From Promethearchaeota archaeon (GTDB lineage Archaea; Asgardarchaeota; Lokiarchaeia; Sigyniarchaeales; SOKP01), in the NCBI GenBank assembly GCA_016839705.1, contig JAEOTR010000027.1, forward strand, positions 1 to 26,094: a stretch of 26,094 nucleotides of DNA, written 5' to 3'. The position numbers and the translations under genes are program-made. Of the stretch, positions 4,714-18,263 are shown piece by piece (the first letter of the stretch is position 1; every line of letters starts with the position of its first letter). The notes beneath the pieces are model-generated. The model was not told the DNA's origin. It worked only from the letters and a program-made list of their open reading frames with translations, and did no database searches.

Positions 4714-5742
4714 TTATAGTTTGGTAATTTCTATATTTTCTACGTTCTCTGAAATTCTCACAAGACCAGGAGAAACTGCATCAATTGTGCCTAGGATCCA
4801 ATTCGAAATTCCATTATCCGAAAGAATATTAGAAAATTCCTCTGCTTTTAAAGGTTCTATGGCCATAAGCATACCACCCGCTGTCTCAGCACATTTACAT
4901 TCATCAAAATCATAACCTAAATCTTTTGATAAACGATCAGAGAGTTTAATTGATGGTATCGTTTCAATAATCGCTGATAAATTAGAGTTCTGGAGAATTT
5001 CAGATAGATGCCCTGCTAGACCGAAACCTGTAATATCTGTCATAGCATGAATAAATGAAAAATTATCGAAAGAGTGAATTGTTTTCACAACATCCTGGTT
5101 TGGAGTAGTCATTATCTTTATTGCTAGATCAATTGATTTTTTTAGTTGGTTTTTGGAATAAGCTTCAAGCATCTCAGGAAAGTCTTTTAATAATCTATAT
5201 GCTGCCATAACAGGTTGAATTCCGATTGGTTTAGTTAATATCAGTCTATCACCTTTTTTCACTCCTTGTTTTCTAATTATCGCATCCTTATGAACAAATC
5301 CAGAAGCTTCACCACCTATTAATGGCCACTCCGAGTATATTGTATGACCTCCCACTACTTTAGAATGAATCTTCTTTTCCATATAATATTTGATTCCCGC
5401 TAAAATTCCTTCAGCAACCTCCATTGGAGTGTTAGTACTTATTCCTAAAAAGATTAGCATCCCCGAGATGTCCGGAACATTCATTGCAAAAATGTCGTTT
5501 GTTACATTGCACGCGGCTATTTGTCCCATTACTTCGGGTTCATCAACAATGGGGGTAAAGATATCCAAATTTTTTACTTGAACTATATCAGTATTAGGAA
5601 CATGCACAATAGCAGCATCTTCAATATCTCCAGCTAACCCAGTTTTCTCAAGCAAATCATTTAATTCATTAGAGCCAAGTTTACATGATCAACCGAAAAT
5701 CTTTACTTGTTTCGTTAACCTATACTCTATTTTTTTAGGCAT
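4714..5742 (-). CDS. selD: Selenide, water dikinase (selenophosphate synthetase), selenocysteine-containing, copy 1 (342 aa)
   Basis: ATG 5742 after GAGGTGA reads MPKKIEYRLTKQVKIFG-U(TGA 5691-5689)-SCKLG, in frame with ORF 4714..5655. Motifs EDAA, DIFTP, NVTND, GGHT, TDITGFGL, ETAGG. Confidence 0.93.
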
Positions 5743-5744
5743 AC

Positions 5745-5751
5745 TCACCTC
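5745..5751 (-). promoter_or_regulatory. Shine-Dalgarno site of selD copy 1
   Basis: GAGGTGA just upstream of ATG 5742. Confidence 0.7.
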
Positions 5752-5977
5752 ACTTTTGCATAAATTTCTTTTTTATTAAAATAGTAAGCGTTTTCTTAAT
5801 TAATTTAAAATATTAAGCAAGCAAAAAAATTGTGTTTATTTATTAAAATTTTCGATTTAATTTATCGAAGAAATAGATAAGTCTCATTAATTGTCTTAAT
5901 TAAGGTGTACATTAAATTAAAGCAGTATAAATCTAAATCAAAAAATGAGAGAAAACTAAAATTTCTAGCAAATTATA

Positions 5978-6049
5978 CGATGCCGCCTTGCAACGGATTT
6001 CTCAATAAGCGTCCGCATTGCTGCATTTTTGCTTATTTCATTGACATCG
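5978..6049 (-). promoter_or_regulatory. SECIS-like element in the 3' UTR of selD copy 2
   Basis: Minus-strand RNA directly after the stop: CGAUG-UCA-AUGA-AAUAAGC-AAAAAU-GCA-GCAA-UGC-GGAC-GCUUAUU-GA-GAAAU-CCGUU-GCAA-GGCGG-CAUCG. AUGA/GA core, perfect 7-bp helix II, apical A-run with mini-stem, closing helix I. Confidence 0.85.
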
Positions 6050-7081
6050 TTAGATATTTGTTATTTCAATATATTCAACATCATCAGAGATGCGAATATT
6101 CTTAGGTTTTTTAATGTTATCGATTGTACCAACAATCCAATTAGAGATATCGTTCTTGGTTAATTTTTCTGAAAATTCTTCTGCTTGTCTATGATCAACG
6201 GAGATAAGCATACCTCCCGCAGTTTCTGGCATTTCAGCTGTATCAAATTTATAACCGAATTCATACGCTAATTCTTGTGTAAGTCTAATAATAGGTATCC
6301 TATCAAGAATGGCTGAAAGTTTAGAATTTTGAAGCATTTCTTTCAGATGTCCAGCTAAACCAAATCCGGAAACGTCGGTCATTGAGTGTATGAAATGCAC
6401 ATTTGGATACGAATGGATTGTTTTTACAACATCTTGAAGCGGTGTGGTCATAAGGTTAATTGCGGTTTCAATGGAAATATCAAGTTCTTTTGATGAAAAG
6501 CTTTCCAACAGAGCGGGGTTGTTTTTTTGTAGACGATATGCTGCCATAATGGCTTGATTGCCAACTGGCTTAGTTAGGATTAATTTATCTCCTAATTCAA
6601 CATAATTTTTCCGTATTATCTTGCTTTTCTCAACGAATCCAGATGCTTCACCACCTATCAACGGCCATTCGGAGTATATTGTATGACCCCCTAAGACTTT
6701 GGAATTTATTTTATGTTCCATGAAATTTTTAATTCCACGAAGTATGCCTTCTGAAACATAAGTTGGCATGTTCTTCTTGATCCCAAGGAAAACGAGCATA
6801 CCGGAAATTTCAAGAACATTCAAAGCAAAGACATCATTTGTAACATTAGCAGCAGCAATCTCTCCCACTATCTCTGGCTCATCTAAGATTGGTGTGAATA
6901 TGTCAAGGTTCTTTACCATGACAAGGTCGGTATTAGGCACAGGAATTACCGCAGAATCTTCAATATCTCCTTTCAAACCAACTCTAGATAAAAGGTTCTC
7001 TAGCTTTTTCGCTTCAACTTTACAATTTCAACCAAATAGTTTCGTTTGGAGCGTCAATCGATAACTCTCTAACTCTTGCAT
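6050..7081 (-). CDS. selD: Selenide, water dikinase (selenophosphate synthetase), selenocysteine-containing, copy 2 (343 aa)
   Basis: ATG 7081 after GAGGTGA reads MQELESYRLTLQTKLFG-U(TGA 7030-7028)-NCKVE, in frame with ORF 6050..6976. Motifs EDSA, DIFTP, NVTND, GGHT, TDVSGFGL, PETAGG. Confidence 0.93.
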
Positions 7082-7091: not shown

Positions 7092-7221
7092 AAATCTGTT
7101 TTTTTCTTCTTATATTAGTAGGTATAAATATAAAATGCGAATATATTAATTTTTTCTATATAATTTATTTAAAAAATGAATAAAGCTAAGAAAAAAAGTA
7201 AGAAAATTTGTTATAAAAAAT

Positions 7222-16443: not shown

Positions 16444-17172
16444 TTAATATTTTATTATTGAAAAGATTTTTTCAGAATTAGATTTTGATACATCGAAATA
16501 TTCCTTTATTCTTTGATTAGTAGCTTTACCGTTTAAAATCACACATGAGATTTTCCACTTTTCAATTAAAGATAACAAATAAGAATCAATGGGTTTAGTT
16601 TGGTTTTTCAACTCTCCTTCACTAGTTTTAAATTCGCGTAACTTTCCAGAATGCTTCATTTTCTTGTATTCAGAGGTATTAAGTTCTTTTATGACTTGAT
16701 TGTCTTTGTTGAAGATCCCCTCAACATCTTTTATTAAGAAACAATGGGGAATTTCTAACTCTTTTGCTAAAAAAAGAGTTATAGAATCAGAGGTAACATC
16801 CCAACTGTGTGGTAATCTATCAATTTCTTTTAAGAATCGGTAGGGAAGAAAGATACTAAAACTTCTATCTAATTTTTTTAATCTATTTACGTTTTCAATA
16901 ACATCTAATTCTGGAAATTTCTTGCCTAATTCGATGCCATTGTAATTCATTGACATTACTCCCATCCAGTGTCCAAGATCCTCTGTGAACTTAAGTTCAC
17001 TATATACCTTTCTAATGAAATTTGCAAGTGTCCCTCCACCAGGGATTAAAATAATCTTCTTTACACTTCCCTTATCATACAACTGTGTTAGTTGAGAAAT
17101 GGTAGAATTTAGATCTTCAAAATTCTCTAAAATCTTGCCTCCAATTTTAAATATTACATTATTATATCCCAT
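16444..17172 (-). CDS. mfnE: Amino-acid-kinase-family protein, [5-(aminomethyl)furan-3-yl]methyl phosphate kinase-like
   Basis: KIGG, IPGGGTLANFIR, LPHSWDVTSDSI, KDVEG; next to an mfnF-like gene. Confidence 0.75.
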   Translation of the reverse strand: MGYNNVIFKIGGKILENFEDLNSTISQLTQLYDKGSVKKIILIPGGGTLANFIRKVYSELKFTEDLGHWMGVMSMNYNGIELGKKFPELDVIENVNRLKKLDRSFSIFLPYRFLKEIDRLPHSWDVTSDSITLFLAKELEIPHCFLIKDVEGIFNKDNQVIKELNTSEYKKMKHSGKLREFKTSEGELKNQTKPIDSYLLSLIEKWKISCVILNGKATNQRIKEYFDVSKSNSEKIFSIIKY

Positions 17173-17183
17173 TATCCTCAGTT

Positions 17184-18263
17184 TTAGTATAATTGTTGAT
17201 ACAATGCTCCTGCTACAGCAAAAGCAGATAAACTTATTTTATCTGGGATCTGAGTTATTTCTTCATAAGATAAAATGTTTTGATATCCTAAATTTTTCAG
17301 AGGGATTTTGATTAAAAAATCGGCAGATAACCCAGTAATCACAAATTTTGGATCTGTTTTAAATTCATTATATCTTTCCGTTAAGGCTTCTAAAAATGCT
17401 TTTATTTCTTGCATAATTATATCTAAATGCTTTTCATAAATGAAATTAGCAATGATATTCAAATCTTCTTTTGAAATCGTTTCAATATCCATGCAAATCA
17501 CTCGTGAAAGACGAGCATAACAATCTTCTAATGATTTTGAGCGATTATCAGCAGTATCATTTATATAATCTTCCTCTGATATTAAATTCAAAATTCTATA
17601 AACATCAGAAATTAATGCAAATTTTTCAAATGAGACTCGTATTTTATTACCTTTATAGGGAACGTGGTGGGTGATCGAGGGAATAGTAGCTCTTAAACCT
17701 CCTGTATAAATCAATTCATGATTTATCAGACGTGAAGTATCATCTCTTCCTTTTGGTATAGGTAATGATTCAAATATCGGAATAATGTCAATTGTTGTAG
17801 AACCCGCGTCAATTAAAATGCATGTCGAAGCAAATTTCCCTAAGAATAAAGCCGTTGATGCCCAATTAGCGGCTGCAATTGTAATATAATCAGAATAAAC
17901 CTGTTCAAATTTAATGAATTCACAGTTATTAGTGATAAATCTCAATTTGGATTGATTGAAAACTTTTTTTAAAGCATTTACAATTGTTAATATTCCCTCT
18001 CTCTTAGTTCGAAATGCATCAGATAATTCCGCAGTTATGGTAACCGCAATGTAATCAACCTTTTTAAGTGTAAAGCCGTATTTTTTGACTAGATTTTTTA
18101 TTATTCTTTGGAACAATTCATGGATTTCAGTAAGAGTTCTTTCCCAGAATGGAAAATATTCTATGTAAGAAAATGATTCCATAATTGTTTTTTCATTATA
18201 GTGAAGTAGTGCAGCTTTTGTATTGGCACCACCAATATCTAAACCAAGAATTATATCGGAAAT
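17184..18263 (-). CDS. mfnF: Hydantoinase-A-like methanofuran biosynthesis protein; true N-terminus extends beyond the ORF-track ATG at 18182
   Basis: In-frame upstream ILGLDIGGANTKAA; ITAELSDAF, AAANW, IDAGSTTIDIIP, ELIYTGGLRA, TADNRSK, ARLSRVICMD. Confidence 0.78.
   Translation of the reverse strand: MSDIILGLDIGGANTKAALLHYNEKTIMESFSYIEYFPFWERTLTEIHELFQRIIKNLVKKYGFTLKKVDYIAVTITAELSDAFRTKREGILTIVNALKKVFNQSKLRFITNNCEFIKFEQVYSDYITIAAANWASTALFLGKFASTCILIDAGSTTIDIIPIFESLPIPKGRDDTSRLINHELIYTGGLRATIPSITHHVPYKGNKIRVSFEKFALISDVYRILNLISEEDYINDTADNRSKSLEDCYARLSRVICMDIETISKEDLNIIANFIYEKHLDIIMQEIKAFLEALTERYNEFKTDPKFVITGLSADFLIKIPLKNLGYQNILSYEEITQIPDKISLSAFAVAGALYQQLY

Follow-up and report, generated by a model that had tools for sequence, protein, structure and literature searches.

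The window analysed here, a stretch of 26,094 nucleotides from a Lokiarchaeia genome, carries two selD genes in tandem, and the sequence establishes both as apparently intact genes for selenocysteine (Sec)-containing SelD, with two types of SECIS element and two predicted promoters that share a rare box. The reading that we regard as probable is that they encode two selenophosphate synthetase isoenzymes that belong to one selenium regulon, share a regulator and respond at different thresholds.

Two Intact selD Genes With UGA at Codon 18

The gene pair comprises the following features:

7081-6050, minus strand: selD-A, derived paralogue of 343 aa with Sec18, start ATG at 7081, stop at 6052-6050; the A clade is monophyletic (SH-aLRT 99)
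7030-7028, minus strand: UGA Sec codon of selD-A, codon 18, within FG-U-N-C-K
7091-7085, minus strand: Shine-Dalgarno sequence GAGGTGA of selD-A, kept in 52/53 A genes
5940..5955, minus strand: T-rich tract, possible archaeal terminator of selD-A, judged from sequence only
5742-4714, minus strand: selD-B, 342 aa with Sec18, start ATG at 5742, stop at 4716-4714; ancestral-type copy, orthologue of the single selD in other Lokiarchaeia
5691-5689, minus strand: UGA Sec codon of selD-B, codon 18, within FG-U-S-C-K
5751-5745, minus strand: Shine-Dalgarno sequence GAGGTGA of selD-B, read from the sequence

The original prediction of a tandem selD pair with UGA at codon 18 of both genes was confirmed by these coordinates, by the NCBIfam selD model TIGR00476 (175 bits for selD-A and 202 bits for selD-B, both passing the cut-off of 125), by the homologues and by public contigs; against PRK14105 the scores were 261 and 274, respectively, both below its 291. 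The genome has no selD genes other than these two, which share 63% identity (212/337), slightly less than the two-thirds first estimated. TGA is the Sec codon in all 155 full-length homologues of the class that were analysed, including 53/53 A and 95/95 B genes; the set was chosen on a G-[U/C]-x-C-K motif, which admitted Cys, yet none had Cys. UGA at codon 18 is thus not due to chance. The N-terminal motif Sec/Cys-x-x-Lys reads U18-x-C20-K21 in both proteins, and the replacement of Sec/Cys by another residue that marks the SPS1 type was found in neither. Contigs of a public DNA run, possibly from the source sample (run X3, records 13 and 14), showed no differences at both TGAs and the A-B junction, and an RNA-library contig from another study (X6 record 29) covers the selD-A TGA, likewise without differences. 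Exact matches among RNA-library contigs were obtained for selD-A and not for selD-B; such contigs cannot rank genes, and this was not counted as evidence. An assembly artefact, or a pair of pseudogenes in which the UGAs are true stops, might be suspected from the 6.8% contamination of the metagenome-assembled genome, but the same pair, in the same order and with UGA, recurs in about 60 genomes, of which two consist of one contig each, contigs span the A-B junction, both genes are under purifying selection and their SECIS elements are conserved. This conservation refutes such a reading, to which we assign next to no probability.

Both host proteins retain K21, D42, D60, N79, D83, D236 and the G-x-G-x-x-G loop, and their Asp/Asn residues align to D69/D87/N106/D110/D265 of human SPS1. 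SelD needs four metal-binding Asp and a conserved Asn (PMC4210487), and the set D42, D60, D83 and D236 together with N79 is present in both host SelDs. Among the 53 A and 95 B genes, the catalytic residues except N79 are at least 98% invariant. SelD-A and SelD-B are probably both active enzymes.

Sec Machinery and Selenium Sinks of the Host

That Lokiarchaeia use Sec, as previously stated, is borne out by the host genome. SepSecS was found above the model cut-off, homologues of PSTK (E 1e-42) and EFSec (E 1e-69) under their cut-offs, and a tRNA-Sec with UCA anticodon shows the archaeal 9/4 fold, a 7-bp D stem and a long variable arm once a 33-nt insert in its D loop is removed. The ends of host contigs C16 (G000:C16) and C87 (L006, L007) overlap across this insert, so that EFSec, tRNA-Sec and SepSecS are probably neighbours. 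Further selenoprotein genes in the host genome are two hdrA-vhuD pairs, prxL and one gene for a Sec-Sec protein. SelU and SenB were not found in the host genome, which is 93% complete, and YqeB was found in none of 135 genomes of the family; Sec synthesis is therefore the only detected selenium sink, in accordance with the report for Lokiarchaeota of Sec synthesis as the only sink, with no SelU or YqeB (Mariotti 2016, PMC4989117). The suggestion that the two enzymes serve different selenium sinks is consequently unsupported, and the remark that each needs its own product for its synthesis holds as it does for every Sec-SelD.

The Sec-Sec protein is encoded by an ORF with adjacent UGA-UGA codons (HAD-U-U-ADV) at L164:1291-1770 (G000:C73, plus strand), which adjoins an Acr3-like permease gene and has a perfect type I SECIS 8 nt 3' of its stop. 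The UU pair is kept in 30/30 top homologue loci, a SECIS was detected at 28 of them, and the family is none of the seven Asgard selenoprotein families in the literature. At L216 (G093) and L221 (G063), short ORFs that contain G-G-G-G-U motifs and have a type I SECIS 14-21 nt past the stop possibly represent another small selenoprotein family. Elsewhere in the window, at 16444-18182, MfnE- and MfnF-like genes of methanofuran biosynthesis lie side by side.

SECIS Elements

As had been proposed, each selD gene has its own SECIS, and the two belong to different types:

6050-5977, minus strand: type II (selD-type) lokiSECIS of selD-A with helix I, AUGA/GA core at 6041-6002, A-rich bulge, mini-stem and 3' hairpin
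4713-4645, minus strand: type I lokiSECIS of selD-B with 9-bp stem and 11-nt loop ending in G, core at 4702-4668; folding z -2.6

The type II combination of a short stem, an apical mini-stem and a conserved helix I behind selD was found at selD-A and not at selD-B. Since single-sequence folding of the selD-A element was not significant (z about -0.5), conservation was used instead, and its pairing is kept in 85-100% of the 53 A orthologues. Down to its flanks, the selD-B element has the form that prxL and vhuD use, whereas most selD genes use type II. All pairs of the type I stem covary (9/9 across 14 elements), far above slid controls, the rows having been picked by the same pattern, which favours pairing. 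The Rfam search gave no SECIS match, Rfam being without a model that fits these elements, and genome-wide pattern searches yielded 329 matches with a loose pattern, mostly chance, and 5 with a strict one against 0-1 in shuffles.

Type I elements follow 7/95 B genes, and on the B protein tree this distribution needs five changes, at least four of them forced by strong branches, which indicates that type II was swapped for type I on selD-B at least four times. A single origin of the type I element was rejected (p-AU 3e-57). Among the genes of other selenoproteins, no near-identical donor of the selD-B element was found, the best scores being 47-51 of 74. Huang 2024 (PMC11227280) describes selD as 'mainly' type II, mentions minor forms of SECIS and proposes that SECIS elements were acquired from already existing genes, a process of which the selD-B element is a concrete case. 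The repeated replacement shows that type II and type I are interchangeable on one gene, and it tempers that paper's proposal of the selD type II element as a fixed bridge to eukaryotic SECIS.

Origin and Divergence of the Two Copies

Among the 161 genomes of the class, the A-type copy is present in about 38 of the 54 of the host genus and about 23 of the 42 of a second genus; no genome outside these two genera has it. Two complete single-contig genomes of another family (G016, G021) each contain one selD. Wherever both copies lie on one contig, selD-A is upstream of selD-B in the same orientation, either next to it or separated by one inserted gene, and the locus is flanked by a HEAT-repeat gene on one side and a cinA-like gene on the other. 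The A genes form one clade in the tree (SH-aLRT 99) on a long stem branch of 0.31, and B groups with single-copy selD genes; tree and locus point to one old tandem duplication that produced the derived copy A beside the ancestral copy B. Many genomes of the same two genera have the syntenic locus without A, which shows that A is dispensable and was often lost. The dN/dS values of 0.105 for A and 0.109 for B did not differ (Wilcoxon p = 0.38, 16 independent genome pairs), and A and B are thus under equal purifying selection.

About 30 sites are diagnostic for A versus B, and the fixed substitutions in A include N215L, V13T, S19N, C78A and C284M. Position 215 is Leu in 53/53 A proteins, whereas its equivalent is Asn in B (95%), in 7/7 outgroup Lokiarchaeia, in human SPS1 (N248) and in Aquifex; moreover, SelD-A is without two conserved Cys (Cys78, Cys284), and its N-terminal loop is highly conserved. 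Such substitutions could mean a changed activity. The main rival to the regulatory reading, and one compatible with it, is that SelD-A is biochemically specialised, with a different selenium donor such as a TusA/DsrE carrier, a different affinity or an SPS1-like second role with Sec kept. The long A stem, the diagnostic sites with Leu215, the lost Cys and the conserved loop argue for it, as does a split-YedE/TusA/DsrE cassette that occupies the same slot only in genomes without A. However, SelD-A retains Sec and the known catalytic residues, its dN/dS is the same as that of B, unlike the unequal rates after SPS1/SPS2 splits, no further selenium sink was found and the predicted operator is the one that B has, so that we consider such a change unlikely.

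Several relatives show further events at the locus. At L069 (G057), selD-A and selD-B have 96-97% nucleotide identity across alignment codons 80-120, apparently a sign of local gene conversion in this one relative. The selD-A orthologues at L078:4011-4041 (G077) and L079:4281-4311 (G075) contain differing 31-nt inserts one base past the Sec codon, both of which fit a bulge-helix-bulge intron and whose excision restores G-U-N-C-K; the host's own genes are without such an insert. Bulge-helix-bulge inserts of 30 nt are also present at codon 141-142 of selD-B orthologues at L085 near 7272 (G105) and at L135 (G092). A double-cubane reductase gene (NF040772, above cut-off) lies between selD-A and selD-B at L073, L074, L084, L088, L101, L102 and L105, and a LysR-type box precedes the inserted gene, which suggests a selenium-linked role. 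The cassette of split YedE, TusA, a DsrE-domain protein and TusA fills the slot upstream of selD-B at L118, L123, L124, L126 and L138 (partly L130), in each case where the genome is without selD-A. Full-length YeeE is patchy (45/135 genomes), with no evident link to the presence of A.

Promoter Box and LysR-Type Regulator

Predicted regulatory sites were located at both selD genes and at a third locus:

7142..7184, minus strand: predicted promoter/operator of selD-A, weaker version of the LysR-type box, overlapping a BRE/TATA-like element; 37.4 bits
5839..5881, minus strand: predicted promoter/operator of selD-B, with a LysR-type box close to consensus that overlaps a BRE/TATA-like element; 40.3 bits, core match 12/12
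L225:7900-9614 (G000:C9): lysR and divergent dsrE-tusA (split YedF-like pair), box in the intergenic region

The box has the layout ATC-N9-GAT-N7-ATC-N9-xAT, and its end overlaps the BRE/TATA-like element about 110 nt before the selD-B ATG. LysR operators are laid out as tandem T-N11-A, and a candidate operator of this kind was found at the divergent lysR promoter and at selD-A and selD-B. The scores of 37.4 and 40.3 bits were obtained with a matrix built without the sites of the host genome, which gave exactly three matches above 14 bits genome-wide, namely selD-A, selD-B and the lysR/dsrE-tusA intergenic region; with the first 28 matrix positions only, i.e., with the TATA part removed, these sites rank 1, 2 and 5. 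A matrix from B sites alone matched the same sites in the host genome (selD-B, lysR/dsrE-tusA intergenic, selD-A) and exceeded 15 bits at 30/30 genus-level lysR loci as compared to 0.3% of shuffles. Reciprocally, a matrix from lysR sites returned both selD promoters as the next-best matches in the genome. The exact box pattern occurs 72 times in 135 genomes, the reversed control not once: 15 matches at selD-A, 8 at selD-B, 48 in the dsrE-tusA/lysR region and 1 at the double-cubane gene between A and B. Because the pattern was derived from such sites, its informative part is the absence of matches elsewhere, and in the second genus most matches were assigned by their position next to lysR. The box stands upstream of 48/51 A orthologues, a core match of at least 11/12 was found in 33/52 paired B genes and in 0% of shuffles, and the split-YedE/TusA/DsrE cassette is likewise preceded by the box. 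One genus has lysR-dsrE-tusA-selD as an uninterrupted run. In most other genera of the family, the one with lysR beside selD among them, no box was detected though LysR is present. A sigma-70 promoter scan, with a model unsuited to archaea, stayed at chance level.

The two selD boxes are different versions. Of the 43 B sites, 33 retain G16 and 42 retain C28 of the palindrome, none of the 48 A sites has G16, and the selD-B box fits the palindrome better than that of selD-A; under the lysR-trained matrix, A scores above B in 34/47 genomes, so that which site is 'stronger' depends on the yardstick. This reciprocal matrix rules out a decayed A box: A carries a conserved variant.

The LysR_Se-like gene at L225 (G000:C9:101666-102613) encodes the only LysR detected in the host genome. 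Its best model is LysR_Sec_metab NF040786 (E 2e-62, 210.8 bits, cut-off 250), and the next model scores 115. On the basis of motif, rarity and position it was assigned to the boxes at selD and dsrE-tusA, and a LysR_Se/HrsM-like regulator likely binds them. No LysR box was found at L289 (G000:C70:36000-44000) at tusA-yeeE-dsrEFH-like genes, which lie there head-to-head with a hydrogenase operon, upstream of hypE/hypD.

Proposed Role of the Gene Pair

We propose that each SelD is made by UGA recoding via its own 3' SECIS, a step strongly indicated by the data, and that both would feed Sec-tRNA synthesis by PSTK and SepSecS, the only sink detected. The promoters of selD-A, selD-B and dsrE-tusA, the latter coding for a YedF-like selenium relay, would carry the predicted site of a single LysR_Se/HrsM-like regulator. 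Binding is most likely repressive, given that the BRE/TATA element and the second half-site overlap, and repression in selenium sufficiency is somewhat favoured over other modes; HrsM of Methanococcus represses under selenium sufficiency according to the literature, which states the sensing mode of HrsM/LysR_Se as unknown (PMC11097638). Linkage of LysR_Se, YedE, YedF and selD was described by Lin 2015 (PMC5322559), with selenophosphate proposed as effector. If selenophosphate is the effector here, as the literature proposes for HrsM, a feedback loop on the product of SelD would be closed. With its near-perfect palindrome selD-B would be the tightly controlled copy and selD-A, with the weaker site, the leakier baseline copy, the least certain step of the proposal. 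We lean slightly towards control that differs between the genes, and the earlier idea that they serve different conditions has gained support from separate promoters with differing versions of the box. The pair would be retained for the range of regulation and the capacity to capture selenium that it provides, rather than to supply different end products.

Plain gene dosage, in which interchangeable enzymes raise the flux for a large selenoproteome and the differences in protein and operator are drift, would agree with the absence of A from intact loci in many genomes of the same genera, with equal dN/dS and with the local gene conversion in one relative. Nevertheless, the A and B clades stay apart across about 60 genomes, their differences in protein and operator are fixed and their promoters are separate, and we hold dosage to be improbable. 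SelD acts as a dimer whose active sites are shared, and among the intact loci none had A without B, which would suit a mainly heterodimeric enzyme in which A tunes B; their promoters are separate, however, and B works alone in most relatives, leaving this a very slim prospect. Returning to two isoenzymes under one regulator, a more elaborate version is rather doubtful at present: a selenophosphate feedback circuit in which a LysR_Se/HrsM-type regulator controls two biochemically specialised Sec-SelDs and a TusA/DsrE relay through one operator with graded affinities, the recoding efficiency of the ancestral copy being retuned by repeated whole-SECIS exchange. With a candidate site, its two natural variants and a predicted regulon of three members, binding in the presence of selenophosphate becomes directly testable.

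Comparison With Known Systems

The rarity of the pair had been overstated. According to the available part of Huang 2024 (PMC11227280), at least two selD genes are present in 51 Loki-/Thorarchaeia, and the published tree includes _U, _U_2 and _U_3 copies, the second Sec copies forming, as here, a well-supported long-branch clade; in that part, tandem order, stable A/B orthogroups, promoters, operator and repeated SECIS replacement are not described. The SPS/SelD of Lokiarchaeota reported by Mariotti 2016 (PMC4989117) likewise has Sec at the homologous codon, the full archaeal Sec machinery and no SelU or YqeB, and its lokiSECIS is a type II element directly behind the stop, like that of selD-A. 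By contrast, that gene is single-copy, whereas two are present here and selD-B has a type I element.

The contrast with animals drawn in the original prediction is correct in that metazoan SPS1/SPS2 also arose by duplication of a Sec-SPS, with SPS1 losing Sec and rates becoming unequal (Mariotti 2015, PMC4561486), unlike the retained Sec and equal dN/dS found here; it was incomplete: in marsupials, two Sec copies that have SECIS elements, SPS2a and SPS2b (PMC3316567), are retained, as in the present host. Being restricted to two genera within a single Lokiarchaeia family in a tree without eukaryotic sequences, the duplication is unlikely to be ancestral to eukaryotic SPS1/SPS2.

In literature searches, thin on subscription papers, no paper on an Asgard operator of this kind was found. 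The gene neighbourhood resembles that of LysR_Se (Lin 2015, PMC5322559), in which lysR is linked to selD, a YedF-like protein (SirA + DsrE), split YedE and a hydroxyacyl-CoA dehydratase-like gene. Known targets of HrsM are operons of Cys-isoform hydrogenases (PMC11097638), whereas the targets predicted here are both selD genes and dsrE-tusA, in an Asgard archaeon and with a defined box. Taken together, Sec-SelD, lokiSECIS and multi-copy selD in this group are already published and the pair itself adds little; the apparent novelty is a separate promoter for either copy, in which the site for a probable selenium-sensing regulator is matched differently.
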